The notes below the pieces were generated by a model. That model did no database searches. It saw only the letters and a program-made list of their open reading frames with translations, and was not told where the DNA came from. From IMG/VR virus record IMGVR_UViG_3300025294_000002: a stretch of 41,691 nucleotides of DNA; one strand, given 5' to 3'. The first letter of the stretch is position 1, and each line of letters opens with the position of its first letter. Shown here one piece after another: positions 1,591 to 36,177 of this stretch. The DNA comes from a virus. A program made the translations under genes and the position numbers.

Positions 1591-1602
1591 GCGGACCTCC
1601 GG

Positions 1603-1643
1603 AAAAAGGTGAGGCCGACCACCAGGGGGTGATGGCCGGCCTC
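1603..1643 (-). terminator. Rho-independent terminator ending the exported-protein cassette
   Basis: Minus strand reads GAGGCCGGC-catcaccccctggtg-GTCGGCCTC followed by ACCTTTTTCC. Confidence 0.7.
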
Positions 1644-1748
1644 TGCACCGCAGGCGATGGGGGTCGCCCGGTGCGGCGGCGTTGACGTAGCCGCGTCACG
1701 ACCGCGAGGGGATAGCCCCGGAGGATCGGAACAACGGGGCCTTCGCGA

Positions 1749-2135
1749 TTACGGGCCGGCGAACAGCCACACGCCGAGGAACTGGTTCACGGCCTGACCC
1801 TGGCCGACCTGCTGCGCTACGTTGGCGTTGCCGGACAGCGCGCCACCGAGCGCGAACGCGCCACCACCCTGCGAGGTGTTGCCGGTCGAGCCGGACGCGG
1901 TCCACTGGTTGTTGTTGGTGAAGCCGCCGGTTGCGAACGAAGCGTTGTCGGCGTGCGCGCCGCTCGCCTGCCCGGTGATACCGGCGATGGCAGCGACGGA
2001 ACCGCCCTGCGACTGCGAGCCGACCTGCGACTGCGAACCGGCCTGACCTGCGCCGATGGCGATGCCGAGATCCAGCGCGAAGGCGGGCGACACGGCCAGT
2101 GCCAGCACCAGGCCGGCGATGATCTTGCGGAACAT
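1749..2135 (-). CDS. Secreted Gly/Ser/Gln/Asn-rich protein (128 aa)
   Basis: Signal peptide MFRKIIAGLVLALAVSPAFA. Low-complexity GSQSQVGSQSQGGS and GGGAFALGGALSGNANVAQQVGQGQ. Strong SD GAAGGAGAGA. Confidence 0.8.
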   Translation of the reverse strand: MFRKIIAGLVLALAVSPAFALDLGIAIGAGQAGSQSQVGSQSQGGSVAAIAGITGQASGAHADNASFATGGFTNNNQWTASGSTGNTSQGGGAFALGGALSGNANVAQQVGQGQAVNQFLGVWLFAGP

Positions 2136-2203
2136 GACTCTCTCCTTCGGGGCGAATGGGTTGCCGGCATGCGCGCGCCCCTTGGACGCGGATGCCGATG
2201 TGC

Positions 2204-2428
2204 TTACTTCGTGCGACGGGGTTCGTCCGACTCGTCCACCGGCTGCCGGTGCTGCGCAGCGCGCGCGACGGCGTCCAGGAGGCGGTCAGTGCTGGTCGGC
2301 GAATGTCCGCTGTGGGTCTGCGGTTGTGGCGCGGCGTCGGCCGGCTGTGCGACCGGTGCCGACGGTGCCGGCTGCGGTGCATTCGCCGGCACGGCAAGCG
2401 CCAGTGCGAGCGCGATGGTCGTGATCAT
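2204..2428 (-). CDS. Small secreted Pro/Ala/Gln-rich protein (74 aa)
   Basis: Internal ATG of ORF 2204-2902. Signal peptide MITTIALALALAVPANA. ATGA overlap with the stop at 2425. Confidence 0.65.
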   Translation of the reverse strand: MITTIALALALAVPANAPQPAPSAPVAQPADAAPQPQTHSGHSPTSTDRLLDAVARAAQHRQPVDESDEPRRTK

Positions 2429-2628
2429 GTCGGCTGCCCTCTCACTTTCCGACGGAACCAGATGAACAGCACGCCACCGAGACGGCCCGCGTTGTCCAGC
2501 TCCCACTCCGTGAACTTCACGCCGCGACGCTCCAGCCGGTCGAGCAGAACGGTGTCGAGAATCGCGACGACGACGATCAGCGCCAGTACGCAGATGCAGG
2601 TCGAGAAAACCCAAAAGTCGACCATCAC
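2425..2628 (-). CDS. Small membrane protein (67 aa)
   Basis: N-terminal TM segment FWVFSTCICVLALIVVVAIL. GTGATG start overlaps the stop of the upstream gene. Confidence 0.65.
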   Translation of the reverse strand: MMVDFWVFSTCICVLALIVVVAILDTVLLDRLERRGVKFTEWELDNAGRLGGVLFIWFRRKVRGQPT

Positions 2629-3437
2629 GGGCTCGGGCGGACCGCCTCGAACGTGGCGGAGCGACCGTCGCTACCGGTGATCGTGGCGTGGTCGCCGGCC
2701 GGACGGTCCAGCGAGCCACGCGGTGTGCGTGGCTGGTACTCCGACGGCTGGACGGTCGGCTCTGCCTTCGGCTGCGGGCGCGGCTCCACCTGCGGAGGAT
2801 CACGCGGGAGCGCGTCGTGCGGCAGCGTGTCGTGCGACAGCGCACCTTCGCCCAGCAGGCCGATCTGCTCGCACGCCTCGGCGGTGAGCGAGGTGACCGC
2901 ATCGTTGCCGGCCATGCAGATCTCCCACGTCTGCATCGCGATCAGCTTGCCGGCCATATCGGTGAGGCCGGCGGAGTACGCGTTCGCGGCGGCGACGCCG
3001 AACTTCTCCGCGCGACGCAGCGCCTGACAGTTGCCGTCCATCTTCGGGATGGCAGCACCGAGCGACAGGCCGAAGCCGGATGCGCCGGCAGATGCGGTGC
3101 CACCGCAGTAGTCGCTGGAGAACGAAACGCTCGCGGCCAGCGGCACGCTCGCGTTGGTCTTGAACTTCTGGGTGGTCTTGTGCGGGATCGCAGCGGCTTC
3201 GAAGTTGAGCATCGTCGCCTGGACGTTGCCCTGCTCCGAGGATTGGTTCGAATTCGCGGACGCGCCGGACACGCTGGACGAATCCGAATTCGCGCCCGAG
3301 ATGGCGGTGGAGTCGAGATCGATCGTCTGCGCATTGGCGGACGGAATGCCGTACAGGATGACCACCGTGGCGACGATGGCACCCAGCAGGAAAGCGATGA
3401 CGCGCTCGGACCAGCGCGCGACCTTGAGCGGTTCCAT
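2625..3437 (-). CDS. Exported or membrane-anchored protein (270 aa)
   Basis: ORF 2625-3476 trimmed to the ATG with a GGGGAG SD. TM/signal anchor VIAFLLGAIVATVVILYGIPSANA, then a Ser/Asn-rich stretch, a 4-Cys region and a Pro-rich tail. Confidence 0.75.
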   Translation of the reverse strand: MEPLKVARWSERVIAFLLGAIVATVVILYGIPSANAQTIDLDSTAISGANSDSSSVSGASANSNQSSEQGNVQATMLNFEAAAIPHKTTQKFKTNASVPLAASVSFSSDYCGGTASAGASGFGLSLGAAIPKMDGNCQALRRAEKFGVAAANAYSAGLTDMAGKLIAMQTWEICMAGNDAVTSLTAEACEQIGLLGEGALSHDTLPHDALPRDPPQVEPRPQPKAEPTVQPSEYQPRTPRGSLDRPAGDHATITGSDGRSATFEAVRPSP

Positions 3438-3606
3438 GAGGTTCTCCCCAGCGAAAAGTGTGACTGCGGTGTGCATGCGGATTTAACGCCGACAGGCATG
3501 GGGAGCGGCATACCGCTCGTGCGTAAGTTGAGGTTTACCGAGCGCGTGCAGCACGGGGAAATCAGCGTCACCACCGTCATCAGTGCGTCAGCGCCTGTCA
3601 GCGGCG

Positions 3607-3921
3607 TCATGCCGGCCTCGCGACCGCAGCGCGCCACGCGGTGACCAGCGCGATGACGTCATCAACGCAGGTGACGACGTACACGCGACCACCGCGCCAG
3701 TCACGCGCGAATGCGCTCTGCTCGATGTTGAGCCCAGCCCGACCGTAGCGGCTGTCGGGGTTCTTGATCTCAACCAGGTACGTCTGCCCCATGCATCCGA
3801 CGACAAGGTCGGGGAAACCGGAAACGCCTGCCAGCGCGAGATCCGCTATCGAGCATCCCAATCTCAGGAACGCGGCTGCAATCGCCGCGTGGTTCGTGTC
3901 CCGGCTTCCCCGGTGATTCAT
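3607..3921 (-). CDS. PD-(D/E)xK / VRR-NUC-like nuclease (104 aa)
   Basis: Motif GFPDLVVGCMGQTYLVEIKNP. ATGA overlap with the upstream stop at 3918. Confidence 0.7.
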   Translation of the reverse strand: MNHRGSRDTNHAAIAAAFLRLGCSIADLALAGVSGFPDLVVGCMGQTYLVEIKNPDSRYGRAGLNIEQSAFARDWRGGRVYVVTCVDDVIALVTAWRAAVARPA

Positions 3922-9117: not shown

Positions 9118-10275
9118 CTACCGGACCATCTGCAGTCCGGCGATCAGGGTGGCGGCGTGCGACGGGATGAAGCGCCAGTAGTTCTTCTGGATCATCGCGA
9201 TCGAGGTGCCGGCCAGATCCGCGACCACCGCGACCGGCACGGCCGCGCGCAGCAGGTCGGTGATGTACGAATGGCGGAGCGTGTAGAGCGACGCGTTCGC
9301 CGGCAGCTTCGCCTCGGCGCATGCGGCCTTGAGGCGACGGTGGTACGCGGACGTCTTCCACGCCTCGCCGCCATCGGTCAGCAGCGACGCGGCCGGGAGC
9401 TTGTTCTTCACCAGCTTGCCGAACAGCGCGCGCGCCTCGTCCGACAGCGGGATCGAACGGCCACCGGTCTTGCCGTCCGGGATCACGAGCGTGCCGGTCT
9501 TGGCGTGGTAGTTGATCACGGTCAGCCCCTGCGCCTCGCCGAACCGCATGCCGGTCATCGCGATGGCAGCGACCAGATCCTTCATCTCCTCGTCCGGGCA
9601 CTTCGCGATCAGGCGGGCGCGCTGCTTCGAGTCGAGGTACAGGTCGCGCACACCACCTTGGCCGGACTTCTTCAAACCCTTGTTCCACTCGATCTGCAGG
9701 TCCGGAGAGACCATGCGCTGGTCGACCGCGAAGTTGAGCGACGCGATGACCGCGCACAGGATTCGGTCGACTGTGGCCGGCGCGAGCTTCTTCCCCTTCT
9801 TGCCCTTGAGCGCGAGCCGCCATTCCTTGAGCGGCTTCTCCCGGATGCGATCCAGCGGCAGCGACGCGAGCGTGGTCTCGAACAGGTACGCCTCCAGCCG
9901 CGAGCGCTGGTCCGCCTCGGTGTCGGTCCGACCCTCCAGCAGCAGATCCTTCAGGTACGCGTCGCAGGCATCGCGGACGGTGGTGCTGGCCGGAGCGGTG
10001 ACGCCCTGATCGAGCCGCCCCGCCCAGACCCGGGCTGCCTTGCACGCGGCGTCGTAGTCGTTCGCGGCGGTCACCGCGCCCAGCGACTCGTGGACGTACT
10101 TGCCCCCCGCCGGACGGTAGCGGGCGATCCATGTGCCACGACCGCCCACCTCCAGACACCGGAACCCGAGCGACACCGACCGCTCCTTCGACTTTTCCAG
10201 GGGCACCCAATACGGCTCGGGAGACGGGTCGAGCTTGGCGCGGACGGTGGCCTTCTCGATGGACTGGCGGGACAT
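9118..10275 (-). CDS. int: Tyrosine integrase (385 aa)
   Basis: SAM-like N-terminal domain plus catalytic region MTGMRFGEA...YTLRHSYITDLL...LAGTSIAMIQKNYWRF. Adjacent to the attP-like region. Confidence 0.95.
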   Translation of the reverse strand: MSRQSIEKATVRAKLDPSPEPYWVPLEKSKERSVSLGFRCLEVGGRGTWIARYRPAGGKYVHESLGAVTAANDYDAACKAARVWAGRLDQGVTAPASTTVRDACDAYLKDLLLEGRTDTEADQRSRLEAYLFETTLASLPLDRIREKPLKEWRLALKGKKGKKLAPATVDRILCAVIASLNFAVDQRMVSPDLQIEWNKGLKKSGQGGVRDLYLDSKQRARLIAKCPDEEMKDLVAAIAMTGMRFGEAQGLTVINYHAKTGTLVIPDGKTGGRSIPLSDEARALFGKLVKNKLPAASLLTDGGEAWKTSAYHRRLKAACAEAKLPANASLYTLRHSYITDLLRAAVPVAVVADLAGTSIAMIQKNYWRFIPSHAATLIAGLQMVR

Positions 10276-10475
10276 GGGAACCTCCGGGTGGGAAGCCGCT
10301 GCGGAGCGTAGCGCGAAACGTTACTCGTAACGCGTACGGAATCCGTACGGAAAAGCGCATGGAATCGGATGGAATCGGCTGGTACGCCATCCCTGTTAAA
10401 TCAGCGACTTAGGGATCGCATGGGACAGGATGGTACCTTGGTTTTCGCCGAAAACCGCGCTCTCAAGGCGGACAC

Positions 10476-10503
10476 ACGGGTTCGAATCCCGTTGGGAGTA
10501 CCA
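10476..10503 (+). other. tRNA-like 3' fragment (T-arm, 3' acceptor strand, ACCA); candidate att core
   Basis: ACGGG-TTCGAAT-CCCGT then TGGGAGT-A-CCA. No matching 5' acceptor strand within 100 nt upstream, so this is not a complete tRNA gene. Confidence 0.6.
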
Positions 10504-10654: not shown

Positions 10655-10969
10655 TCAACGCGGCCGGGTGCAGGCGCGCAGCAGCGCACCGAGCGCAGCC
10701 TGACGGCGCTGGTAGTCGTCCGACAGGACGAACCGCTTGCCCAGCCCGAGGGGCGACCGAGCCCGGGCCGCGAGCCAGCGCTCAACGTGCAGCATGGCCT
10801 TCTCGATGGAGGTGTCGCGGCCCCTGACCTCCCGGCCCCGCCAGAAGATCGAGACCAGCACGATGCCGTCGACCGTCTTGATCGCCGCCGCGCATCCGTA
10901 GCGGAGCCGGAGAATCGCCCCACCTTCGTGCCGATCCCATTGGTACGCGCCACCGAGCATGACCCGCAT
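10655..10969 (-). CDS. Hypothetical protein (104 aa)
   Basis: ORF track entry. Last gene before attP. Confidence 0.65.
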   Translation of the reverse strand: MRVMLGGAYQWDRHEGGAILRLRYGCAAAIKTVDGIVLVSIFWRGREVRGRDTSIEKAMLHVERWLAARARSPLGLGKRFVLSDDYQRRQAALGALLRACTRPR

Positions 10970-10984
10970 GGTGCCGCATGGGAC

Positions 10985-11257
10985 TCAGCCCGGGAACCAT
11001 CCGCCCCGCAGCTCGTGGGCGAGCTTCGCCAGCCGGCGGTCGCGCCACTCCCTCGCCCACCGAGGGGCGAAGTACGCGATGCCGAACGAGACCCCGGCGT
11101 TGATCAGCAGCGGCACGTGGCGGTCGTTCGCCAGCGCCCAGACCACGAACCCGCACCAGCCGAGCGACGGCCCGATACCGCGCACGAGCCACCCCACGAA
11201 CACGCGCCGCACCCGGCACCAGGGGCACTGGCAGAGCAGCAGGTCGAGCGCCTTCAC
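10985..11257 (-). CDS. Small membrane protein, about 2 TM plus basic C-terminus (90 aa, GTG start)
   Basis: GTGA overlap with the stop at 11254. Sequence VFVGWLVRGIGPSLGWCGFVVWAL...LLINAGVSFGIAYFA...RDRRLAKLAHELR. Confidence 0.55.
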   Translation of the reverse strand: MKALDLLLCQCPWCRVRRVFVGWLVRGIGPSLGWCGFVVWALANDRHVPLLINAGVSFGIAYFAPRWAREWRDRRLAKLAHELRGGWFPG

Positions 11258-11478
11258 AGGGGCAGCGCGCGCGACGCGTGCCACGCGAGATGGGTGGCCA
11301 GCAGCGCGGCGGTGATCCAGAACACGGCGAGGTTCAATGCGATCCAGCGCATGGGCGGGTCCGCGAGACGCGCAACGCGCAACGCCTGCCATGCCCCACC
11401 GAGGCAGACCAGGATCAGGATCGACTGCACGGCGAGCGACACCACCGGCAGCCAGCGAGCGATCTCGTTAAGCGTCAT
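11254..11478 (-). CDS. Small membrane protein, about 2 TM (74 aa)
   Basis: Internal ATG of ORF 11254-11580: MTLNEIARWLPVVSLAVQSILILVCLGGAW...WIALNLAVFWITAALLATHLAW. Confidence 0.6.
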   Translation of the reverse strand: MTLNEIARWLPVVSLAVQSILILVCLGGAWQALRVARLADPPMRWIALNLAVFWITAALLATHLAWHASRALPL

Positions 11479-11482
11479 GGGA

Positions 11483-11713
11483 TCAATGCTCCGGCGGAAC
11501 CACGCAGGTGAGCGTTCGGTCGTGCAGCTCGATGGCGTCGAGCGCGGCGCGCACGCGCGCGAGGCCCATCGGAGGCTCATCGGTGGCGACGAACATCGGC
11601 GACTGCGCTTCCGGCACGTAGACGATCAAGGCGAACTCCACGCCCGCACGCGCCATCTGCGAGACGGCAGCGGCGACGGTCTCGCCGCGACGCTTGCGCG
11701 CATCGTCGGTCAT
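11483..11713 (-). CDS. Hypothetical protein (76 aa)
   Basis: ORF track entry. 4-nt overlap at 11710-11713. Confidence 0.65.
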   Translation of the reverse strand: MTDDARKRRGETVAAAVSQMARAGVEFALIVYVPEAQSPMFVATDEPPMGLARVRAALDAIELHDRTLTCVVPPEH

Positions 11714-12048
11714 GGCACGAACGTCCGGCCGTGCGCGGTGGCGAGCAGCGCGGGGAAGTACGGCGTCTCGGTCTGCTGCGCGAGCCGCCAGCGGAGCCAG
11801 CGCTCTGCCTCCTCGATCGCGGCACCGAGCGACATGAAGTAGCGCGGGAACGAATCCTGCCCGTCCAGGTGCATGCGACCGGCCTGCATAACACCGAACT
11901 GCCAGTGGCCACGGTCGCAGTAGAGCGGACGCGGCGAGATCCAGACCCAGATCTCGTGCCCGTCGTACCGGAACCGCAGGTCGAGCGTGCTGTGGCGCTC
12001 GTCGTACCGCCAGACCGGTGGCGTCGGGAGATTGCTGGAATCTTTCAT
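11710..12048 (-). CDS. Hypothetical protein (112 aa)
   Basis: ORF track entry. Trp/Arg-rich globular composition. Confidence 0.75.
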   Translation of the reverse strand: MKDSSNLPTPPVWRYDERHSTLDLRFRYDGHEIWVWISPRPLYCDRGHWQFGVMQAGRMHLDGQDSFPRYFMSLGAAIEEAERWLRWRLAQQTETPYFPALLATAHGRTFVP

Positions 12049-12221
12049 GAAAGGCTCCTCGCGACCAGGATCGCGGACAGACCGAGGAACACCAGCGCGA
12101 AGCCGAGCGCGAACCGGTCCGGCTTGCCAGCGGTGCGTGACCGGCCGTAGCGACCGAGGTTCTGCGCGACCAGCGAGCCGAGACCGAACATGAGGATGAG
12201 ATCGGCGGCGTGCGGCGTCAT
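12045..12221 (-). CDS. Small membrane protein, 2 TM (58 aa)
   Basis: Internal ATG of ORF 12045-12611: MTPHAADLILMFGLGSLVAQNLGRYGRSRTAGKPDRFALGFALVFLGLSAILVARSLS. ATGA overlap. Confidence 0.55.
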   Translation of the reverse strand: MTPHAADLILMFGLGSLVAQNLGRYGRSRTAGKPDRFALGFALVFLGLSAILVARSLS

Positions 12222-12502
12222 CGCGGCTCCTCCATCTGAATCCGTGCCGCGCCCGGGTCGTTGCCTTCGAACATGTGTCCGGCCATCAGCCCGTACGCCG
12301 CTTGCGGCTGCGGGATGTTCGTCACCATCATGGTCTCGACGTCGCGCGAGCCCGGTGTCATGTCGATCACGGCGGCGAAGTACACGCGCGTGCCCAAATG
12401 CTCCAGCGCGAGCGCGGCGATGGACGCCTCCACCGCCTTGCCGAACGCGATGCGCTGCTGCGTGATCCGCTTCTCCGGATCGTGGAAGTAGGTCGTGTGC
12501 AT
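12218..12502 (-). CDS. Hypothetical protein (94 aa)
   Basis: ORF track entry. Confidence 0.7.
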   Translation of the reverse strand: MHTTYFHDPEKRITQQRIAFGKAVEASIAALALEHLGTRVYFAAVIDMTPGSRDVETMMVTNIPQPQAAYGLMAGHMFEGNDPGAARIQMEEPR

Positions 12503-12975
12503 CAGGCGAGCCCCACCGATGCCTTGAGCAGCGCGCTAGAGATCTCGCGCAGGCGGTCGGCAAAGAACCGGCGGTCGCGCCCGAGCCCCTCCAACCATTC
12601 GTCGCCGCCATGCTCCAGACCGCTCGCCATGCCCGAGGCGATGCCGGCGAGCAGCGTCAGGTCCGTGCCGATGGCGTCGATCACGTCGACCATCTCGCTC
12701 AGGCGACCGTGCATCGTGCCGCCGACCTCCGTGCCCGGGTCCGCACCGAACGGAACGCGGCACGCCTCCAGATCGTGTGCGAGCCCCTCCAGCGCAGCGC
12801 GCGACAGGACGTCCTCCGCCGGCACGGCCGTGATCGCGTGACGCACCGTGTGCGCGCAGAACAGCGCGTGGTCGCCGCGCATGAAAACGCCAGGCCAGTC
12901 GTCGCCGAACTGCACCGGCCCCGACTCCATGCGCGACATGCCTTCCGGCAGCGGCAGCTCCGTCACGCCGATCAT
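12502..12975 (-). CDS. Hypothetical protein, module order Y-X (157 aa); paralog of 13866-14405
   Basis: N-terminal RMESGPVQFGDDWPGVFMRGDHA...LEGLAHDLEACRVP; C-terminal LLAGIASGMASGL...GRDRRFFADRLREISSALLKA. Confidence 0.75.
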   Translation of the reverse strand: MIGVTELPLPEGMSRMESGPVQFGDDWPGVFMRGDHALFCAHTVRHAITAVPAEDVLSRAALEGLAHDLEACRVPFGADPGTEVGGTMHGRLSEMVDVIDAIGTDLTLLAGIASGMASGLEHGGDEWLEGLGRDRRFFADRLREISSALLKASVGLA

Positions 12976-13205
12976 GCGCGCGCCCTCTTCTTCGTCGCCT
13001 TCTTCGCGGGTGGTGCCATCGGCGGCATCTGCAACAGGCGGGTCACGAACCAGACCGCCATCACCTGCTCGGCCGTCACGTTGGTGCAGCCGTTCGCCAC
13101 CGCCTGCGCGAACCCGACGACGTCCCGCGTCAGCCGCACCGGTATGTCGACACCAGCCTGCGAGAGAACCACCGCGACATCACCCTGCTTCTTCCCCTTC
13201 GCCAT
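12972..13205 (-). CDS. Hypothetical protein with basic tail (77 aa)
   Basis: ORF track entry. C-terminus PPAKKATKKRARA. Confidence 0.65.
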   Translation of the reverse strand: MAKGKKQGDVAVVLSQAGVDIPVRLTRDVVGFAQAVANGCTNVTAEQVMAVWFVTRLLQMPPMAPPAKKATKKRARA

Positions 13206-13573
13206 TACCGTTCCTCCTCCTTCAAGCGATCACGCGCGACCAGGAGCTGGTGGTACGAAGCCCCCGTGTGAATTTCGACCATGTGCCCGCAGTGCTTGCA
13301 CTTCGCCCGCTTGCGGTCCGCGAGCAGCGCCGACTCGGCGCGCAGCATCATCCAGCGGTCGTGCAGGCGCTCGTCCTCGCGGGCGAGCATGCCCAGCACC
13401 CAGAGCGGGTTGAGTTGTGCCTTACAGTCGCAGCACGTGACCAGCGCCAGGCGCTCGTCGACCTCCACGTGCGCGTGCTTGCACTCGTCTCGGCCGAACG
13501 TCGGCCGGACCACGGACAGCGGCGCGGTCTGGATTGGCCGGCGTCGCTGCGGGAAGTTCTTCACCTTGCTCAT
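13205..13573 (-). CDS. Cys-rich, zinc-finger-like protein (122 aa)
   Basis: Internal ATG (MSKVKNF...). ECKHAH...VTCCDCKAQ...KCKHCGH. ATGA overlap at 13570-13573. Confidence 0.7.
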   Translation of the reverse strand: MSKVKNFPQRRRPIQTAPLSVVRPTFGRDECKHAHVEVDERLALVTCCDCKAQLNPLWVLGMLAREDERLHDRWMMLRAESALLADRKRAKCKHCGHMVEIHTGASYHQLLVARDRLKEEER

Positions 13574-13845
13574 TCGGCGTCCGCCTCGCACGCCTCGACG
13601 ACGATCTGCCGTGCGATGGCGTGCCAGCGCGCGAGCCGGTTGAGGAAATCGGGATCAAGGTCGACATGCCGCCAGAACGCGGCAGCGACGGCGGCGTCGC
13701 TCGGTCGACCATCGGTGCGCGGCGGTGGGCGGGACGGAACGCCAAACGGTCCCCAGCCGCACGAACAGGCTTGCATGTCGTACCCGGACTTCGTGAGGAC
13801 GCATCCGCACTCCGGGCATTCGTCGAGTTTTTCGAGGTGACTCAC
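13570..13845 (-). CDS. Cys-rich small protein (91 aa)
   Basis: ECPECGCVLTKSGYDMQACSCGWG. Confidence 0.7.
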   Translation of the reverse strand: MSHLEKLDECPECGCVLTKSGYDMQACSCGWGPFGVPSRPPPRTDGRPSDAAVAAAFWRHVDLDPDFLNRLARWHAIARQIVVEACEADAE

Positions 13846-13865
13846 AGCACCTCCAGCGGGTTTTG

Positions 13866-14405
13866 TTAGGCGCGATCTCCGTCCGTTTCGCCTTGGCTAT
13901 CCGGCGGGACCACGCACGATTGCAGCGTGTGTTGCAGATGCTCCAGCAGGTCCAGTGTGGTGGCGCGCTTATCCGCACGCGCCGCATCGACCAGCTCCGT
14001 CAACAAAATCGCGTAGACCCAGGCGTCATCACCTCGAATGAAAACCCCCGGCCAGTCTGCCCCGAGCTTCACCGCACCCGTTTCCAAGCGCGCCGTTATC
14101 TCCGGGTGGTACTGGATGAAAACCGATCTGATCTCGTCCGATATTCCTGCGTCCGCCAGCGAGTGAGAGAGGTACGCGCGCTTGGTATTTGCAGCGGCCT
14201 CGCCCTGCCTCACGCGATGTGCGTCCGACCCATAATCCGTGGTTAACCCGCTCGGTTTTCGCGCCTTCAACAGCACGCTGGAAATCTGCTCCAGCGACGC
14301 GACGTAGAACGGTGTCTCGGTAATCAAGTGAGCGATGAAGCGCGAGCGATCTCGCTTCAATTGCTCGGCCATGCCACGTGCCACACCGGCCAGAAAAAGT
14401 CTCAT
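13866..14405 (-). CDS. Hypothetical protein, module order X-Y (179 aa); paralog of 12502-12975
   Basis: N-terminal FLAGVARGMAEQLKRDRSRFIAHL...LEQISSVLLKA; C-terminal RLETGAVKLGADWPGVFIRGDDA...LLEHLQHTLQSCVVP. Lies in a lower-GC patch. Confidence 0.75.
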   Translation of the reverse strand: MRLFLAGVARGMAEQLKRDRSRFIAHLITETPFYVASLEQISSVLLKARKPSGLTTDYGSDAHRVRQGEAAANTKRAYLSHSLADAGISDEIRSVFIQYHPEITARLETGAVKLGADWPGVFIRGDDAWVYAILLTELVDAARADKRATTLDLLEHLQHTLQSCVVPPDSQGETDGDRA

Positions 14406-14483
14406 GGCGACACCTCAAAACCCGATCCGCCCCACTGCTTTCGACTTTCCTGCGACACGTCCATTCCGATCCCCCTTGTCGGG

Positions 14484-14708
14484 CTATAACCAGGTTTCGA
14501 CTATCTGCGGCTCGTCCAGCTCTGAACGACTAATACGCACCCTACCCGGACGCACGTGAGCGCGAACGGATTCCAGGGTCGGACCAAAGTACGCGTCGGC
14601 TGTGGGCAGAGCACCCCGAGCGTCTACCGTGAAGCGCCGCGCGACATACCCCTCGGGGTAGTCGAGCGGGCGCTCGTAGATCGCGTACGCGGACAATTCT
14701 CCACTCAT
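14484..14708 (-). CDS. Hypothetical protein (74 aa)
   Basis: ORF track entry: YAIYERPLDYPEGYVARRF...PQIVETWL. Confidence 0.7.
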   Translation of the reverse strand: MSGELSAYAIYERPLDYPEGYVARRFTVDARGALPTADAYFGPTLESVRAHVRPGRVRISRSELDEPQIVETWL

Positions 14709-14968
14709 TCGCCTGCCTCCGGCAATCCGGCGTTACCTGAAACGCCGTCGCGTTCGTCACACTCCTGCAGGTAGAGCGCGCCCAGCACCTGCAGCATCTG
14801 GGTCTCGTCGACGATCACGGGCTCGTCCTCGCCGTTCGGGGATTCGGCGATCTTCCGGTCGAGGTACTTCACCGGCCGCGACTCCGGGCCGAACGCGATG
14901 ACGGACAGCCGGCGGTACGCGCCGAGCGTCGACGGGTCACCGGTGGACAAGTAGCGCGTCGAGACCAT
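14705..14968 (-). CDS. Hypothetical protein (87 aa)
   Basis: ORF track entry. 4-nt overlap at 14705-14708. Confidence 0.65.
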   Translation of the reverse strand: MVSTRYLSTGDPSTLGAYRRLSVIAFGPESRPVKYLDRKIAESPNGEDEPVIVDETQMLQVLGALYLQECDERDGVSGNAGLPEAGE

Positions 14969-14969
14969 G

Positions 14970-15461
14970 TCAATGCTCCCGGAACTCGTGGGCGGGAACG
15001 TCGGCGTGATCCGCGCGCATCGCCGCGACCAGCTCCTCCATCGCCGGCACCAGCTCGCCGCGCGCGTGAGAGCCCATGTAGGTCGGGGGGTGCGGGGCCT
15101 GCAGCAGGAACAGCGCGAGCGGCACCGACACGCCGATCAGACGGTCGACCGCATCCTCCACGACCGCCGTCAGGTAGCGCGCGCCCAGCGCGATCCGCTG
15201 CGCGGCGGAGCTGGCCTCCTCGAACGCCACGCGCCCGTACGTCGGATCGTCCGGATGCGCGAACCGGTCGAGCGTCTGCTCAATGGCGTGGATCGCCTCC
15301 TCGCGCGTGGGGCAGGTGTAGATGTAGGACGCGCGCGGCTGGGTAAACAGCACCAGCACGATGGGCACATGCTCGCCGGCCACGGCGTCGACCGCCAGAG
15401 CGATCTCGCGCGCAAGCGTCGGCAGCGCGGTGGAGACCTTGTACATCAGTTCCGTTGACAT
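14970..15461 (-). CDS. Hypothetical protein (163 aa)
   Basis: ORF track entry. Confidence 0.7.
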   Translation of the reverse strand: MSTELMYKVSTALPTLAREIALAVDAVAGEHVPIVLVLFTQPRASYIYTCPTREEAIHAIEQTLDRFAHPDDPTYGRVAFEEASSAAQRIALGARYLTAVVEDAVDRLIGVSVPLALFLLQAPHPPTYMGSHARGELVPAMEELVAAMRADHADVPAHEFREH

Positions 15462-15469
15462 CAGCGTCC

Positions 15470-16048
15470 TCAGTGTTCGACCGGGTGGATGGGGTACTCG
15501 GCCACGCTCACGGCGCGACCCGCGATCAAGTCCGCCATGAGCTGCTCGGCGTCATCGGCATGGACCAGGTGCGGTACGACCTCGGGCAGCCCGAGACGTT
15601 CAAATGCGGAGGCGACCAGGCCGAGCGCCGACCCGCTCCAGTACGGCAGCGGCTCGGGGAACGCACGGGCCGCCAGCTCGATGTCGATTGAAACCTGCGC
15701 CATCGTGGTCGGCAGCGAGTCATCCGGCAGCGACAGCGCGAACAGCAGACGCTGCGCCGGGTTCATTCCGGAGACTTCCTTGGCTACGGCGTCGCGGATC
15801 ACCTGCCGCAGCGGCGACAGCACGGCGTACATCTGCAGCGGCGGCTCGCGGTCGACCGCCGTCGGCGGGTCCAGAGTCGCCAGCCGCTCGTACATGCGCG
15901 GCATGGCTTCGAGGATCACCAGCCACGCCATCAGCGCCGGGACGCGCTCGGCCGGCAGAACCTCATCGATACGGGAACGCAGCTTCGGCGCGGTCCGCAG
16001 ACCGAGCGCAAAGGCGTCGATGCGCCAGCTCCCATCAGGCCCTTCCAT
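15470..16048 (-). CDS. Hypothetical protein (192 aa); first gene of the leftward accessory operon
   Basis: ORF 15470-16342 trimmed to MEGPDGSWRIDAF (GGGGGTGGG SD). A longer start would run into the divergent gene. Confidence 0.65.
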   Translation of the reverse strand: MEGPDGSWRIDAFALGLRTAPKLRSRIDEVLPAERVPALMAWLVILEAMPRMYERLATLDPPTAVDREPPLQMYAVLSPLRQVIRDAVAKEVSGMNPAQRLLFALSLPDDSLPTTMAQVSIDIELAARAFPEPLPYWSGSALGLVASAFERLGLPEVVPHLVHADDAEQLMADLIAGRAVSVAEYPIHPVEH

Positions 16049-16168
16049 GCCCACCCCCGAAAAAGTCGCCGACGATCCGACGAACGGTTTGCCTTCACCC
16101 CCAGCATACGCAAAACTCGGACCCCGGCGGGCCAATGGGGGCCGCCTCCCTGACGAACGGAGCAGACC

Positions 16169-17257
16169 ATGCAGATCGAAGCGCTGCTCGACCGTACAGA
16201 TTTCGCACAGACGGCCGGGCTGAAAGATATGGAATTTCAAGGGTATGCGAACGCGGGACTGATCCCGGCATGCCTCGGTTTCTACAACGGACAGCCGCTC
16301 TGGAAGCGAGCGGACATCGCAGAATTTTGTGCGAGGCACCAATTACCGCTCGCGGGGGAGCCGTCATCGGTTCCTCACATGGCGATAACAAACGAACCGC
16401 CCGCGTCACAAGTGACTACCAGCGACACCCCCGCCCCGCTTGACACTCCCACGGTGGGATGGGTCGACCCAACCCCAGCCCCAGCGGTCCCAGAGCGGGT
16501 GGCGACCATGACGATCCAGCAGGTATGCCAGCGACTCGGATGCTCGCCGGCCACGCTCGCAAAGCGACGCGAACTGGATCTCGCACCGGGCTTCGTAAAA
16601 CACAGCACGCGCGACATCCGCTACTACGCAGACGACGTCGAGGCGATCTACGCCGAACACGGCAAGCTCCCGCGTCACTACTCCGCCGACGGACTCGCGG
16701 CGATCAAGGCGAACACTGCGAAAGCGCGTGCGGCCATCGGAACGAAAGGCAAGGCACCGAAGCCGTTCCAGTATCAGAAGCCGCCTGCAACGCCGCTGCT
16801 CGAACCGGGCAACAGCGGCACCGTCGGGCAAAAGACGGTCATCTCGAACGCGGCCGTCCCCCTCGATGACGCCGCCGCACACCTCGGCATCGACCCGCTC
16901 ATGCTGCGTATCCTGCACAAGGCAGGCGTCGGCCCGAAGGCAGCGAGCGAACAGCCGCTCGCGTACAAGATGTGCGACCTCAACGCGTACAGCACCGAGA
17001 ACGGCCTGCAGCCCGGCCAGATCGCGCGACCGGACAAGGTCTACCTCGATCAGCGCGTCCGCATCCCCGAGGCGTCGACCATCACGCACCTGACGCAGAA
17101 GGCGCTCGAACACCACCGCGCGAAAGGCACCGGTCCCGATTGGGAGCGGCAGGGGATCTTCTCCGTCTACAAGCGAGGCGACCTCTACGCGTGGCTGGTC
17201 GGCAAAGACATGCTCGCCGAACGTGCATACGACGAGCAGCACCGCCGCGCGCACTGA
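16169..17257 (+). CDS. Four-fold tandem excisionase/MerR-type HTH protein (362 aa); only plus-strand gene
   Basis: Four HTH_17-like modules at about aa 5-55, 112-161, 229-274 and 297-343. GGAG SD. Own terminator. Confidence 0.85.
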   Translation: MQIEALLDRTDFAQTAGLKDMEFQGYANAGLIPACLGFYNGQPLWKRADIAEFCARHQLPLAGEPSSVPHMAITNEPPASQVTTSDTPAPLDTPTVGWVDPTPAPAVPERVATMTIQQVCQRLGCSPATLAKRRELDLAPGFVKHSTRDIRYYADDVEAIYAEHGKLPRHYSADGLAAIKANTAKARAAIGTKGKAPKPFQYQKPPATPLLEPGNSGTVGQKTVISNAAVPLDDAAAHLGIDPLMLRILHKAGVGPKAASEQPLAYKMCDLNAYSTENGLQPGQIARPDKVYLDQRVRIPEASTITHLTQKALEHHRAKGTGPDWERQGIFSVYKRGDLYAWLVGKDMLAERAYDEQHRRAH

Positions 17258-17312: not shown

Positions 17313-17529
17313 CGACCGGTGGCACCGCGCGCAGCGGCGGCGTGCCAGCTCCCTCATCGACCCCGACCGAAAACGGACGCGGCTGCATCGCCTCCTCGAC
17401 CAGCGGCTGCAACGTCGACAGCGCCTGATTGATGGCGACGACGGTCGGCCCCTGCGATGACGGTGGCAGCGAGCGCGCGAGATCGGAGCCGACCTGCGAC
17501 AGGTACTGCAGAGCTTCTTGCGGGTTCAT
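17293..17529 (-). CDS. Hypothetical protein downstream of the tail fiber (78 aa)
   Basis: ORF track entry. Its start shares 1 nt with the fiber stop. Confidence 0.6.
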   Translation of the reverse strand: MNPQEALQYLSQVGSDLARSLPPSSQGPTVVAINQALSTLQPLVEEAMQPRPFSVGVDEGAGTPPLRAVPPVEKNPPR

Positions 17530-19997
17530 CAGTGGATCTCCTCAGTGGGGGGAACGGACTGCGCTGCCTCCAGCGCCTTGAGACGGCGATGCAGGGTCGC
17601 GCACAACAACACCGCGAGCTGGTCGTACCGCATTCCGTAGCGGTCGCCGCCAGGGCGACCGGGGAACATCACCTCACCGTCCGGACCGATCTCCGGCGGG
17701 ATTTCTTCCCACACGTCGTGCTGCACCAGCGCGTAGATTTCCGGGTTCAGACCGTGCTGCGTGAAAATGCCATTGACCGTCTGCGCGCCAACACCGAAGT
17801 TCTCGCGACCACCGTCGATCGAGTCGTCGAGGAACTGGAACATCCCCAGCGCGTCCAGGATGTCGTCCGCTGCCGCGAGCTGCTCCGGCGTGAAGGACGC
17901 GAACGGCGTCTTCTCTCGTTCGTCCGACGTGTTGATCGTGCCGCTGACCGCGTACAGGGCCGTCCATCGGTTGCCCGCACCGCCGCACTGGTACTGGTTG
18001 TCGAACATGGGATAGAGCGTGCGCGTGAGCGCGTTGAGGTTACGCACGAGGATTTGGTCTTGGAACGCAGATCCGTCCCAGCGCTGGATGCCGTAGCCAC
18101 CGTCCACCGAATCAGAAATGTTCACCAGCACGCGGTAGCGATTACCGAGCGCATCGGAGCTGTGCACGATCGCGTTGACGTTGCCCTTGATCTCCACGCC
18201 CGACTTGCAATACAGGAAGTTCCAGCGCGCGGCGTCCGACCCGACGTTCGATCCGGCAACCAGCGGCAAGGCATGGACGAGATAGATGCCTTCGCTTTTC
18301 GCGATCAACTTGTCCTCGTAGGCCGACCCGTTCCAACGCGACATCACAAAACCACCATCGACCGAGTCGGTGATGTTCGCCATCAACGTGTAGCGGATGG
18401 TGTTGTTCGGCGAGCCCATCTGCACCTGCAGGACATTCCCGCGCATGTCGATGTTGTTGGCGAGGTAGAGCCCGTTCCACCGATTCGCCGAATACCCCAG
18501 CGGCTGGACGGCATTGCTCGTCCCGCATACCGCACCGTTCGCGCGCACGATCCGGATACCGCCATGACCGAGAGTGTTCGCATCGTTGGACATGCCCCAC
18601 ATGGCGTCGCCGGTCGTGTTCTCGACCGAGATCGATGCGCGGGTCTTGTCCGCCGCGTTACCCGTATTGGAGAAGATCACCGCAGGGAAAGACCCGACCT
18701 GAACCGTCACGCTCGCGATGAAGTAGCCGTTCCCTTCGTCGATCATTCGGAGCCATTGCGACGCGGTGAATGCGCCGGCCGAGATCGCAGCGCGAGACTT
18801 CCAAAGCTGCCCGGCTTCGTAGACGTGTTCACCGGCCGCGTAGGCACTGGTCGAGGAGAAGTAGCGCACCGGGATCAACCCCGTATTCGAAGCCGCCGCA
18901 CCGACGAATAGCTGCATGCGACCAAGATCGGTGCCGATCTGCCCCGTCTGCATCGCGGCGAGATCCGCGCCGGTCGTGCCACGCTGCGGCGAGATCAGGA
19001 TCGATGTCTGGTCGATGCGGAAGTTCGTGAGGGGCACTTGCGGGCCGGCACGCCCGACCAGGCCACCGAGGTTGATGATCTGGTGACTCGCCGCATTCTG
19101 GTCCCCGGTGAAGGAGACGGTGCCATCCGCGCGCAGATACCCCTGCAGGTTGATCGTGCTTCCCATGCGGAACCAGACCGCTCCGTCAAACGCAATCGAG
19201 TCGCCGTTGAACACAGTGACGCCCGCGAGCGAGCCGGTCAGGAACGTATAGCCGCCCGTGGTGAGCCCGTCGATAACCCAGAAGTCGCCAATAGCGGGAG
19301 CGCCGCCCGGGCCGCTGCCGTTGTCGCCCGCCGCCGGGTACTCGTCATTGACGACCGGCTTGAACGTGCCGCGATAGCGCAGGCCGGACGCGACTGCCGG
19401 AATGAAGCTCGGATCGATGGTCCCGTCGGCCAGTGTGCGAACGATTGAGTTCGGTGCCGCTGCCGTGGCCGGGTTTTGCCACACGGGGACACCACCGGAT
19501 TGCACGATGAGACCACCGTCGGAGGCCGGCGGCAGAACGCCTGTCCAGCCGCTGGCTGCGCCGACCAGGAGCGCTCCGGCCACGGTCGTTGGCAGACGAA
19601 CCTGATAGAGCAGATCGCCCTGCGTGCGGCTCACGGCCTCGTGGTTGGCCGGGACGGTGTTCGGAAGGATGAGCGGCAGCACCATCGTCCGCTCGGCTAC
19701 CGTCGCGGTGTTGTCGCGCAGGATCGCGCGGTCGGCCTTCGCCTGCGCCGTCGCCGCCGCGTTGCGCGCGGTCTGGTCGACGCCGATGTCCGTGAGCCAC
19801 GCGGAGTTCGCCTGATTGCGGCGACGCATGATGCCATCGCCACCACCGCTCAGGTCGAGCCAAAGCTGGCCGGGAAACGACGGAGACGGCGCGGTGCTTC
19901 CGCTATTCTGGGTCACCACCGCCGCCAGTGCGTTGTTCAGGTCGGTGCGAAAATTGAAACCGGTCGCGTTCGCGATCGAGTAATCGTGCTGTGCCAT
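17529..19997 (-). CDS. Tail fiber with C-terminal S74 intramolecular chaperone domain (822 aa)
   Basis: C-terminus TINTSDEREKTPF...FGVGAQTV...RYGMRYDQLAVLL. Internal duplicated module (ANITDSVDGGFVMSRWNGSAYEDK and VNISDSVDGGYGIQRWDGSAFQDQ). Confidence 0.9.
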   Translation of the reverse strand: MAQHDYSIANATGFNFRTDLNNALAAVVTQNSGSTAPSPSFPGQLWLDLSGGGDGIMRRRNQANSAWLTDIGVDQTARNAAATAQAKADRAILRDNTATVAERTMVLPLILPNTVPANHEAVSRTQGDLLYQVRLPTTVAGALLVGAASGWTGVLPPASDGGLIVQSGGVPVWQNPATAAAPNSIVRTLADGTIDPSFIPAVASGLRYRGTFKPVVNDEYPAAGDNGSGPGGAPAIGDFWVIDGLTTGGYTFLTGSLAGVTVFNGDSIAFDGAVWFRMGSTINLQGYLRADGTVSFTGDQNAASHQIINLGGLVGRAGPQVPLTNFRIDQTSILISPQRGTTGADLAAMQTGQIGTDLGRMQLFVGAAASNTGLIPVRYFSSTSAYAAGEHVYEAGQLWKSRAAISAGAFTASQWLRMIDEGNGYFIASVTVQVGSFPAVIFSNTGNAADKTRASISVENTTGDAMWGMSNDANTLGHGGIRIVRANGAVCGTSNAVQPLGYSANRWNGLYLANNIDMRGNVLQVQMGSPNNTIRYTLMANITDSVDGGFVMSRWNGSAYEDKLIAKSEGIYLVHALPLVAGSNVGSDAARWNFLYCKSGVEIKGNVNAIVHSSDALGNRYRVLVNISDSVDGGYGIQRWDGSAFQDQILVRNLNALTRTLYPMFDNQYQCGGAGNRWTALYAVSGTINTSDEREKTPFASFTPEQLAAADDILDALGMFQFLDDSIDGGRENFGVGAQTVNGIFTQHGLNPEIYALVQHDVWEEIPPEIGPDGEVMFPGRPGGDRYGMRYDQLAVLLCATLHRRLKALEAAQSVPPTEEIH

Positions 19998-23226: not shown

Positions 23227-23612
23227 GCGAAGTACCTCCCCGCCTCCCAGCCTGCCGCGATCAGCCGCAGCGGCTCCAGACGCGCGCCTGCGCCGCGCCG
23301 GGTGTGCAGCACGGTGTCACCCCACAGGCAGAGACCAACGTGGCGCACAGCGCCCTGTACGTCGTAGAACGCGACCACCGCCCCAGCCGCCGGACCCGGC
23401 AGCTCCTGCCAGTGACCGGTGCGCAATTCGATCTCGGCGATGCCGGGAGTCTCCGCCACCGACAGGATCGCGATGTGCGCCGGCAGCTCCGGCACCTTGA
23501 TGCCGTACAGGTCGCGCAATCCGGCCAGCACCAGGCCCCAGCAGTCGTACGCATGCGGCCCGACGGCACCGAGCTGCCACGGCTTGCCGACGTAGGCGTC
23601 CGCGCCCCTCAT
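23214..23612 (-). CDS. NlpC/P60 (C40) tail-tip peptidase, gpK-like (132 aa)
   Basis: Catalytic Cys context HAYDCWGLV and His context VRHVGLCL. Confidence 0.85.
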   Translation of the reverse strand: MRGADAYVGKPWQLGAVGPHAYDCWGLVLAGLRDLYGIKVPELPAHIAILSVAETPGIAEIELRTGHWQELPGPAAGAVVAFYDVQGAVRHVGLCLWGDTVLHTRRGAGARLEPLRLIAAGWEAGRYFAWAP

Positions 23613-28788: not shown

Positions 28789-29325
28789 TCAGCACCTCGG
28801 GGTCCAGTGCGTCATCAGCCACCGGTCGACAAAGCCCGGAACCTCCGACACCGCGAAGTCGGACGTCGTGCCGCGCCGCTCCCACCAGTCGACGGTGAGC
28901 TGCAGCAGCGCGTCATCGATCGAGCGCGAGCGCTCGGCAGCCGGCAGCGACGTGACCACGACGACATCGCCGACCTGCAGCGGGCCGACCAGCACCGGCT
29001 GGCAGTTGTTCCAGCCCGTCCACGTCAAGGCGAACTGCGCGGTGATGTCCACGCCCGTGCGCGTGACGGTGAAGCCGGCCACCGGTCCCCACAACGGCAG
29101 CGGCGTCGAGCCGCTCGGATGGTCGGATGCGTCGACCGTCCAGGTGTAGCCGGTCGCGACCAGGCGCGCTTCCATCGTGCGGTCGAACTGCGCGCACACC
29201 CGGGTCAGGACGTCCTGCAGCGCGGCGTCGTCCTCGGCGGTGTCGATGCGCAGGTAGACCTTCGCCTCCTCCAGCAGCGCGGTGGCGATGGCGGCGTAGT
29301 CCTTGGCCAGCGGCACGGTCGACAT
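28789..29325 (-). CDS. gp6-like head-tail connector protein (178 aa)
   Basis: LLEEAKVYLRIDTAEDDAALQDVLTRV, the typical N-terminal motif. Confidence 0.8.
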   Translation of the reverse strand: MSTVPLAKDYAAIATALLEEAKVYLRIDTAEDDAALQDVLTRVCAQFDRTMEARLVATGYTWTVDASDHPSGSTPLPLWGPVAGFTVTRTGVDITAQFALTWTGWNNCQPVLVGPLQVGDVVVVTSLPAAERSRSIDDALLQLTVDWWERRGTTSDFAVSEVPGFVDRWLMTHWTPRC

Positions 29326-32142: not shown

Positions 32143-32151
32143 GACGCCGCC

Positions 32152-32883
32152 TCACGCTGCGAAAACGGTGGTCGACTTCGAGGCCGTGCGCGACTGCATC
32201 GCCGAATCGCTCGCGCGAACGGTGAACGAATGCGCGCCTTCGGCTAGACCCGAGACGGCGGTCTCCACGCGGTCGCCCGCGACGCGGAAATTGCCGCCCT
32301 CGTCGTCGGTCAGCTCGTACGAAAACGGCGCGGTGCCGCCGCTGCAGGAAAGCGTGCCGACCAGGGTGCCGACCGGTGAATCGACGGTGATCTCGTCCCC
32401 AGCGGCCATGCTCACGCCCGTGATCGCAGGACCGGGTTCGGCCTCCGGCTCTGCCGCTTCGGACACCGACACGGTGATCGCGAGTGGGCGACGCGAGCCC
32501 ACGCTATCGGTCGCGACGACGACGACCTCGTGATCGCCCACCGCGAGTAGCTTCGTCGTGCGCAGCGAATTGCCGCTGACGGTGAAGCTGTCGTTGTCGT
32601 CGTAGTCCGGCGCGACCGCGAACGTGTACGGCGCGGTGCCGCCCGTCGCTGCGAGGGTGCCCGCATCGGTGTCCGCAGGCGAAGCGGTCGTGACCGGCTT
32701 CGGAGTGAACGTCACCGCCGAAATCGGCGGAGCCGGCGGCGTGCGGTCGAGCATCTTGAACATGCTGTAGACGCGCGATGCCGAACCCTCCGCCACGAGC
32801 AACGTCGCCAGCGCGTTCGGCACGCTGACGAATCCGAGCTTGTCGTTGAGGTTCGAGCGCTTGAACTGCCAGAGCCATGCCAT
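32152..32883 (-). CDS. Ig/cadherin-like repeat protein, probable head decoration (243 aa)
   Basis: Two repeats: GGTAPYTFAV...FTVSGNSL...VVVVATDS and GGTAPFSYEL...FRVAGDRV...FTVRASDS. Confidence 0.8.
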   Translation of the reverse strand: MAWLWQFKRSNLNDKLGFVSVPNALATLLVAEGSASRVYSMFKMLDRTPPAPPISAVTFTPKPVTTASPADTDAGTLAATGGTAPYTFAVAPDYDDNDSFTVSGNSLRTTKLLAVGDHEVVVVATDSVGSRRPLAITVSVSEAAEPEAEPGPAITGVSMAAGDEITVDSPVGTLVGTLSCSGGTAPFSYELTDDEGGNFRVAGDRVETAVSGLAEGAHSFTVRASDSAMQSRTASKSTTVFAA

Positions 32884-32900
32884 GTCGGTAACCCCTTAAG

Positions 32901-32934
32901 AAAAAGGGGTCCGCGCGCAAGGCGAGCGGACCCC
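32901..32934 (-). terminator. Terminator/attenuator hairpin after the capsid gene
   Basis: GGGGTCCGC-N11-GCGGACCCC then TTTTTCTT. A competing hairpin ACCCCTT-tttctt-AAGGGGT sequesters the SD of the next gene. Confidence 0.7.
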
Positions 32935-32941
32935 GACCCGG

Positions 32942-34858: not shown

Positions 34859-34903
34859 GAGCGCGGTCCCGAGGTGTGGGCCTCGGGGCGCGAGCTTCGA
34901 TCG

Positions 34904-35131: not shown

Positions 35132-35190
35132 TGGGCGAGACGCCGACTGCGAACAGGACCAGGACGATGGTGCCGCTTCGCGCGCGCGCA

Positions 35191-35211
35191 CGTAAGCGGG
35201 CGTGACGCCCG
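35191..35211. repeat. 21-bp direct repeat, copy A, flanking the methyltransferase cassette
   Basis: CGTAAGCGGGCGTGACGCCCG versus CGTAAGCGGGCGTAGCGCCCG at 36151-36171. Each copy carries a GGGCG-N3-CGCCC mini-hairpin and follows a stop codon within a few nt. Confidence 0.8.
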
Positions 35212-35212
35212 G

Positions 35213-36100: not shown

Positions 36101-36108
36101 GCGCGCAC

Positions 36109-36137: not shown

Positions 36138-36150
36138 CGGGGAATTCGGT

Positions 36151-36171: not shown

Positions 36172-36177
36172 ACATGA

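Follow-up and report, generated by a model that had tools for sequence, protein, structure and literature searches.

The subject of this analysis is a cassette of four genes in the IMG/VR virus record IMGVR_UViG_3300025294_000002, a stretch of 41,691 nucleotides (nt) that was analysed in full and is called the window below. The cassette is a compact minus-strand unit (1591-3606) made up of a 169-nt leader, four coupled open reading frames (ORFs) of 270, 67, 74 and 128 amino acids (aa), designated g1 to g4, and a structured 3′ region with a terminator (Table 1). A first-pass annotation, made from the letters alone, had outlined these minus-strand elements and the overlaps and Shine-Dalgarno (SD) sequence that couple the genes, and all of them were found in place. 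Its description of a four-gene unit had to be narrowed, however: the conserved part consists of two genes, g1 and g4, whereas g2 and g3 encode lineage-specific small membrane proteins. The g1+g4 core is widespread mobile cargo of many soil phages and a few bacteria, and the pair coexists with ordinary lysins.

Table 1. Features of the cassette and its upstream neighbour (positions in the window).
Feature	Position	Strand	Description
g1	2625-3437	minus	270-aa predicted exported protein; ribosome-binding site GGGGAGAA at 3442-3449
g2	2425-2628	minus	67-aa small membrane protein; start overlaps g1 stop (GTGATG)
g3	2204-2428	minus	74 aa; ATG overlaps g2 stop (ATGA)
g4	1749-2135	minus	128-aa predicted exported protein; SD GAAGGAGAGA at 2139-2148
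Leader	3438-3606	minus	169 nt, non-coding, 5′ of g1
Structured 3′ non-coding region	1591-1748	minus	158 nt, four hairpins, the last being the intrinsic terminator
Intrinsic terminator	1611-1643	minus	14-bp stem with 9 GC pairs, then T-run
Upstream neighbour, VRR-NUC-like endonuclease	3607-3921	minus	last gene of the early block; outside the cassette; PHROGs phrog_93, E = 3.6e-08

The four ORFs are real genes, because their GC content at third codon positions (GC3, 0.82-0.88, with low GC2) is of the coding type, because they recur in identical order and at similar sizes in three related metagenomic contigs (261/66/74/128 aa and 248/65/78/129 aa), and because their ratios of nonsynonymous to synonymous substitution rates (dN/dS, about 0.15-0.31 across all four genes between the window and contig L005) are low, as under purifying selection. 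Where relatives were compared, g1 and g4 retained 69-78% identity and g2 and g3 30-35%, the latter diverging fast. High-GC genomes hold many spurious long ORFs, and many overlapping ORFs were listed in the cassette region; even so, the proposal that the cassette consists of chance open frames in high-GC DNA, or of functionless decaying remnants, deserves next to no credence against the GC3 and dN/dS values, and is already refuted for g1 and g4 by the 116 homologues of g1 (227 clusters at 50% identity) with their invariant motifs and by a partnership with g4 that is kept across 44-69% GC.

From its N- to its C-terminus, g1 consists of a long signal peptide or anchor (with a cleavage-like site between ANA and Q), a Ser/Asn/Gln low-complexity linker, a Cys core, a Pro-rich tail and a short C-terminal beta-hairpin, so that every segment read into it beforehand (signal or anchor, Ser/Asn-rich, four-Cys and Pro-rich) is seen in the family architecture. 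The core of about 90 aa contains four invariant Cys (FSSDYCGG ... DxNCQxLRRAEKFG ... WEIC ... AC); in the family alignment FSSDYC, D..C, an Arg and two further Cys are invariant, and the Pro-rich tail is variable and missing in short forms. The 116 homologues came from a set of 5.8 billion proteins and none carries a Pfam domain, and the 227 clusters were found among 1.84 billion representatives. An AlphaFold2 (AF2) model of g1 was confident (predicted local distance difference test, pLDDT, 80-94) for a beta-hairpin (112-133) followed by three helices (135-192), as well as for the small C-terminal hairpin. Foldseek comparison of this model with PDB and BFVD returned nothing below E = 0.08, the g1 profile retrieved only low-complexity noise from PDB sequences, and tblastn of g1 against phages and plasmids gave no match. 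As modelled, the fold does not look enzyme-like. A catalytic role is also disfavoured for Glu144, which is near-invariant in the close g1 family but gives way to other residues in distant members. An assignment of g1 as an SLT-like transglycosylase, considered for its AYSAG and AMQ strings, was rejected on wrong motif order and lack of a fold match.

The product of g4 has a classical signal peptide (cleavage between AFA and LD) and a mature part of 108 aa, of which 75% is Gly, Ser, Gln, Asn, Ala or Thr; it contains no Lys or Arg, only two acidic residues (Asp+Glu) and no Cys. The family aligns almost without gaps at 127-130 aa, with invariant Gly, Ser, Gln and Asn positions and a C-terminal G-x-W-L-F-x-x-P motif. 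Its AF2 model is all-beta with four long strands at low confidence (pLDDT 54), and the Foldseek neighbours of this model were stems of beta-pore-forming toxins, all insignificant. A lipid-embedded beta-barrel was rejected for g4, considering these insignificant neighbours and the small number of conserved large hydrophobic positions in the mature protein (about 15 of 108). The profiles of g1 and g4 align over their signal peptides only (hhalign), indicating that the two are not homologous to each other; the idea that the Gly-rich hairpin of g1 is a copy of a g4 repeat was discarded on the same result.

Searches of g1-g4 and of distant g1 relatives against Pfam, PHROGs, NCBIfam and PADLOC yielded only weak matches to families of unknown function or to low-complexity sequence. 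No muralytic domain was recognised in g1-g4 by Pfam, PHROGs, PDB-sequence or Foldseek comparison, and no PADLOC model of known anti-phage defence matched any of the four at E <= 0.1. The two core proteins thus matched no curated family, solved structure or known fold in Pfam 2025, NCBIfam 2026, PHROGs v4, PADLOC, PDB and BFVD.

To follow the pair beyond the window, 27 viral and six genomic loci were fetched together with contigs encoding individual homologues, giving 41 locus records. In 34 of the 41, at GC contents of 44-69%, the gene that directly follows g1 is a g4 homologue. Two of the seven exceptions are truncated, and the other five combine a short g1 with a partner directly upstream, an exported Gly/Ser-rich protein of 159-179 aa. 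This second family architecture was seen in L029, L032, L033, L034, L040 and L044, where a g1 of 160-190 aa is preceded by the 159-179-aa exported Gly/Ser/Thr-rich protein; the C-terminus of the partner is glycine-zipper-like, for example GIGGVAAIGSTRF.

The locations of the pair reveal its mobility. Synteny between phage L015 and the window extends over the capsid-protease fusion (41% identity), the portal (54%), the major tail protein (58%) and the tip proteins (38-64%). In L015, g1+g4 is placed between capsid and portal, a position taken in the window by an unrelated ORF of 243 aa; the pair thus sits in different slots of syntenic phages, as expected of a moron, whereas the deviating base composition also expected of one was not seen. 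In the apparently virulent L001-type phages (about 42 kb, with a family-A polymerase and a Prim-Pol primase), the pair closes the replication block after a VRR-NUC-like nuclease gene. Outside phages, three Novosphingobium chromosomes carry g1+g4 beyond any prophage, in three housekeeping neighbourhoods (leuA; an extracytoplasmic function (ECF) sigma/NrsF pair; the Mrp antiporter), each copy lying about 500 nt from an orthologous, divergently transcribed gene for a 75-102-aa GerE/LuxR regulator. This three-gene island (L004/L036, L041 and L042/L039; three species, three sites) resembles csgD and csgBA in layout. In L018, a canonical endolysin gene starts 240 nt after g4 (Pfam Muramidase, 1.5e-32; PDB 7q4s, 4e-23) with a terminator-like hairpin in between; a Peptidase_M15_3 protein is encoded near the module in L016, and in L044 the gene of an SLT lipoprotein is found two genes away from a distant relative of g1. 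With lysins beside the module in 2-3 of about 25 distinct loci, which is about chance level, an enrichment of lysins at the module was dismissed.

The two inner genes show a different pattern. By hydropathy, g2 has a single transmembrane (TM) helix at its N-terminus, followed by a charged loop, a short amphipathic stretch (LGGVLFIWF) and a basic C-terminal end. The g3 protein starts with a hydrophobic anchor, is rich in Pro, Ala and Gln in its middle and ends in an acidic/basic tail; it contains 11 Pro in all and no Cys, hence no lipobox. Their dN/dS values against L005 are 0.30 and 0.31, respectively, and g2 is only 30% identical to its L006 counterpart. Both genes occur only in the window, L005 and L006/L007 and are missing from the other module-bearing loci. 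The g2 protein fits the generic description of a holin; it matches no Pfam or PHROGs holin family, and it is missing from nearly all other module-bearing phages. Spanins are not recognisable in g3 and g4, which have neither Cys nor lipobox and no coiled coil, whereas the related contig L194 encodes both spanins.

The non-coding parts of the cassette are conserved as well. Relatives conserve the g1 start at 3437, and L005 either lacks the ATG further upstream, at 3476, or has it out of frame, so that the leader measures 169 nt. Alignment with L005 and L006 revealed a conserved leader block (about 3453-3489, GCGTTAAATCCGCATGCACACCGCAGTCACACTTTTC) that is non-coding, because 1-nt indels break the frame. 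The leader, with its -10-like TTAAAT at 3483-3488, is a possible promoter of the cassette's own, and promoter-like sites also lie 5′ of g1 in L001 and L019. A 68-nt spacer holding GAAGGAGAGA separates g3 from g4. Past g4, the hairpin-rich 3′ region and clean terminator expected from the initial inspection resolved into the four hairpins and terminator of Table 1. This region has 86% column identity among the window, L005 and L006, above that of the flanking coding DNA, with long invariant blocks, and folds with a minimum free energy of -82.2 kcal/mol (z = -4.3); no Rfam family matched it. Possible roles are those of a small RNA, of a DNA site used in packaging, or of a late-operon leader on which antitermination acts (as with lambda pR′-6S-tR′). 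In 17 of 28 module-bearing loci, g4 is followed at a distance of 35-215 nt by a terminator-like hairpin and T-run.

The position of the cassette is where the question of lysis arises. The window (67% GC, with nearly all genes on the minus strand) has an HNH endonuclease ORF spanning its ends (1-~400 joined to 41598-41691, minus) and is therefore a complete, circularly permuted genome, as had been supposed; gene order past the junction matches that of L005, which runs integrase, early genes, cassette, small ORFs, HNH, ParB/N6-methyltransferase, TerS (P27 type) and TerL. Two relatives by TerL carry canonical lysis genes upstream of HNH-TerS-TerL. Pantoea phage AH07 has the order antiterminator, holin, endolysin, Rz, two ORFs, HNH, TerS and TerL, and contig L194 encodes a lysozyme resembling lambda R (PDB 1am7, 2e-61), a holin with three TM helices, and both an i-spanin and a lipoprotein o-spanin, then HNH-TerS-TerL. 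The holin-endolysin-spanin genes of both stand exactly at the position of the cassette, bearing out the positional argument of the first-pass annotation, and with the order followed through the circular junction the cassette lies between early and terminase genes, as lysis cassettes do in this phage group.

To search for the lysis genes themselves, about 70 ORFs, including plausible plus-strand ones, were compared with Pfam and PHROGs (E <= 1e-3). No endolysin, holin or spanin family was matched, which for 40 of the ORFs applies to the best 25 of 53 matching PHROGs families, and none of the tblastn queries, which were five real endolysins, one holin and one spanin, matched the window; the absence of a recognisable endolysin or holin that had been noted by eye is therefore upheld among the matches listed. 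Hydrolase-type matches were limited to the tail-tip NlpC/P60 protein (23214-23612), previously thought to be the only hydrolase-like fold, and to an endosialidase-like glycosidase domain that the tail fibre (17529-19997) carries together with an S74 chaperone. Between TerL and the capsid gene, a 168-aa ORF (36438-36944, minus) with a classical signal peptide and four Cys matched nothing in Pfam, PHROGs (among the matches listed) or PADLOC, and is by its sequence features a candidate exported lysis or conversion protein. A further 6 kb or so of ORFans (10655-16342) lies between the tail fibre and the integrase, including genes for small membrane proteins at 12045-12221 (58 aa, two hydrophobic segments) and 11254-11580 that could be alternative holin candidates, and for two paralogues (12502-12975 and 13866-14405) that have the motif G(A/D)DWPGVF(I/M)RGD in common.

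With moderate confidence, we read the cassette as an autonomous, moron-like unit that modifies the envelope, built around the mobile g1+g4 core, and not as the lysin. This reading is favoured because the exported pair is obligate and mobile, has its own terminator, is accompanied by a regulator in bacteria, coexists with an endolysin and shows no enzyme-like fold. Two alternatives had been left standing earlier, an unrecognised lysis or envelope-acting system and a surface-remodelling moron whose phage has a diverged lysin; the L015 slot, the Novosphingobium copies, the L018 endolysin and the non-enzyme folds favour the second. In such a unit g1 and g4 would both be exported via Sec and act in the periplasm or outer envelope. 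The invariant small and polar positions of g4 suggest that it may self-assemble into an oligomeric or cross-beta structure, and g1, a predicted disulfide-stabilised beta-hairpin and three-helix domain on a low-complexity stalk, may be its dedicated partner in nucleating, capping, anchoring or controlling this assembly. The genes of the putative inner-membrane proteins g2 and g3 would have entered the core, between g1 and g4, in the lineage of the window, where these two proteins probably help to anchor or regulate it. The unit would be transcribed alone, from the conserved upstream block to the strong terminator, and would alter the host envelope, for instance so as to exclude superinfecting phages or mask receptors, by a protective periplasmic layer or by a surface matrix. 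It would not degrade the wall, and the true lysis proteins of the phage would be among its many other ORFans.

Several points weigh against an envelope-modifying moron. The cassette occupies the exact slot of the holin-endolysin-spanin genes of its TerL relatives, in a complete genome where no other lysis gene is recognisable, and g2 is generically holin-like, being small and translationally coupled with one TM helix and a basic C-terminus. The GC content of the cassette (0.68-0.70, against about 0.67 for the genome) and its GC3 are genome-typical, and thus give no compositional sign of recent acquisition. Upstream of g1 in the window no match to the sigma-70 consensus was found, so the promoter is putative, and the pLDDT of 54 makes self-assembly of g4 a conjecture. 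Lastly, every member of the family is functionally uncharacterised, and we infer the role of the pair.

The first two of these points also speak for a new non-canonical lysis or outer-membrane-disruption system that replaces holin-endolysin-spanin in this lineage, with g2 as a holin-like trigger, g1 as an exported wall-acting or wall-synthesis-blocking factor and g4 breaching the outer membrane by inserting long beta-hairpins into it. We consider such a system unlikely, given where the pair is otherwise found: in non-prophage chromosomal sites with a dedicated regulator and in the head-gene cluster of the syntenic L015, with g2 and g3 absent from almost all module-bearing phages. The pair of L018 does stand immediately upstream of an endolysin gene with no holin visible nearby, and the distant g1 homologue of L044 has its SLT lipoprotein two genes away, but adjacency to lysins is no more frequent than chance. 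The sole structural neighbours of the g4 model are the pore-forming toxin stems, insignificant as they are, against which stands a number of conserved hydrophobics too small for a lipid-facing barrel. Spanin-less lysis has a precedent, in that one preprint puts the share of Gram-negative phages without spanins at about 15% and gives the phiKT disruptin as a known alternative (bioRxiv 10.1101/515445); g4, however, is uncharged and thus not disruptin-like, neither g3 nor g4 has a lipobox, and g1 has no enzyme-like fold and no conserved candidate catalytic Glu. Full replacement of the canonical cassette, with g1 as an exported disulfide protein, g4 as a self-assembling breacher of the envelope and g2/g3 as membrane proteins that set the timing, is quite unlikely; if true, the g1+g4 of sphingomonads and other phages would represent related devices that breach the envelope or release vesicles.

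In its composition g4 resembles Gly-rich microcins and channel formers, as do the upstream partners in their glycine-zipper-like C-termini (GIGGVAAIG and similar). In addition, the chromosomal copies are regulated and the module mobile, all of which would suit a Sec-exported Gly-rich bacteriocin-like or pore-forming peptide (g4) with g1 as its helper or protective partner, released at lysis to the benefit of the lysogen population. This is a very improbable explanation, as no double-glycine leader, ABC exporter or membrane immunity gene accompanies the pair, no bacteriocin family in Pfam or NCBIfam was matched, g1 is exported rather than membrane-embedded, and apparently virulent L001-type phages keep the pair too. 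The probability left over was assigned to functions outside the readings listed here.

The remainder of the genome supplied further observations. Megablast of 25 kb of the window against GenBank phages gave no match, and closer relatives sought with the ParB-methyltransferase and TerL genes in IMG/VR and metagenomes were only distant phages or short contigs. Past the terminator, three successive small ORFs (962-1590, minus; 72, 73 and 59 aa) are apparent paralogues with an N-terminal MTL.(E/Q)L..(L/V)L, the first of which matches PHROGs families of unknown function. The order of the head genes (29325-39834, minus) is unusual: TerL is followed by seven small ORFs, a C5 cytosine methyltransferase gene (35213-36250), a prohead protease-major capsid fusion (32942-34858), the 243-aa ORF, which is SprB-repeat-like, and only then the portal gene (30706-32142, minus; PDB portal matches down to 1e-21), and the region ends in a 462-aa ORF with a collagen-like GEPGEPGPPGPPG stretch. 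ARAGORN placed a 90-nt tRNA-Gly(GCC) gene at 10414-10503 (plus) beside the integrase gene (9118-10275, minus), and this gap, with its tRNA or fragment of one, may be the attP region. Plus-strand genes are few; the one at 16169-17257 encodes a 362-aa protein with a short helix-turn-helix (HTH) that matches the PADLOC mad1 model (9.7e-10); it may be a regulator, and the HTH_17 matches of the batch scan may belong to the same protein.

Phage morons with exported proteins are a known kind, and g1+g4 would add to them a conserved pair of exported proteins undescribed in the libraries queried. The pair was found in unrelated soil phages, temperate and apparently virulent and of wide GC range, and in sphingomonad chromosomes with a dedicated regulator; an envelope function kept by both phages and bacteria is likely to be general, such as exclusion, protection, a matrix or a pore. 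The window also presents a complete temperate siphovirus genome with no recognisable lysis gene, whose relatives have a textbook cassette at the very spot of the module. Either the module is a new Gram-negative lysis route, or the ORFans conceal a new endolysin and holin; in each case the list of lysis proteins would grow.

Among known systems, the cassette may be compared with the lysis cassettes of AH07 (genes 53-55) and L194, which it resembles in position, compactness, coupling and the mixture of membrane and exported proteins. It differs from them in having no muralytic domain, lipoprotein o-spanin or coiled-coil i-spanin, and in a core pair that is found as well together with a real endolysin (L018) and at chromosomal sites outside phages. 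The phiKT gp28 disruptin is a cationic antimicrobial peptide that substitutes for spanins (bioRxiv 10.1101/515445). A comparable role of the cassette would be non-spanin disruption of the outer membrane in a spanin-less phage; mature g4, however, lacks Lys and Arg, is predicted to be all-beta and has a Sec signal, and so does not resemble a cationic peptide.

In curli, the csgBA operon is divergent from csgD, the gene for a LuxR-type regulator. The g1+g4 module likewise comprises two Sec-exported proteins rich in Gly, Ser, Gln and Asn with invariant polar positions, and the Novosphingobium pair is divergent from a small GerE/LuxR regulator gene. Unlike curli subunits, however, g1 and g4 are not homologous to each other, g4 is fixed at 127-130 aa, no Curlin match was found in Pfam and no S-X5-Q-X-G-X-X-N-X-A-X3-Q repeats in the g4 alignment, and CsgG/E/F-like secretion genes were not found among the neighbours (in one neighbour scan, among the best 25 of 45 families).

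Phage morons encoding exported envelope proteins include lambda bor and lom, and the concept stems from comparisons of HK97 and HK022. The core shows no sequence or fold relation to Bor and Lom, its proteins are neither lipoproteins nor recognisable 8-stranded barrels, and it differs from bor and lom in being an obligate two-gene pair of non-deviant GC. What it has in common with morons is a self-contained place between modules, an intrinsic terminator, exported products and a core found at different slots in related genomes and outside phages as well; like lambda bor, the cassette lies near the junction of lysis and terminase genes. Periplasmic anti-lysozyme or exclusion proteins, namely T4 Spackle, Ivy and MliC/PliC, act alone, with no obligate Gly-rich partner. 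Whereas g1 has such a partner and no sequence or structural match to these proteins, it resembles them as a small, Sec-exported, predicted disulfide-bonded periplasmic domain with an invariant loop beside a Cys (FSSDYC), and a role of this kind would make sense both in bacteria and as superinfection exclusion by a phage.

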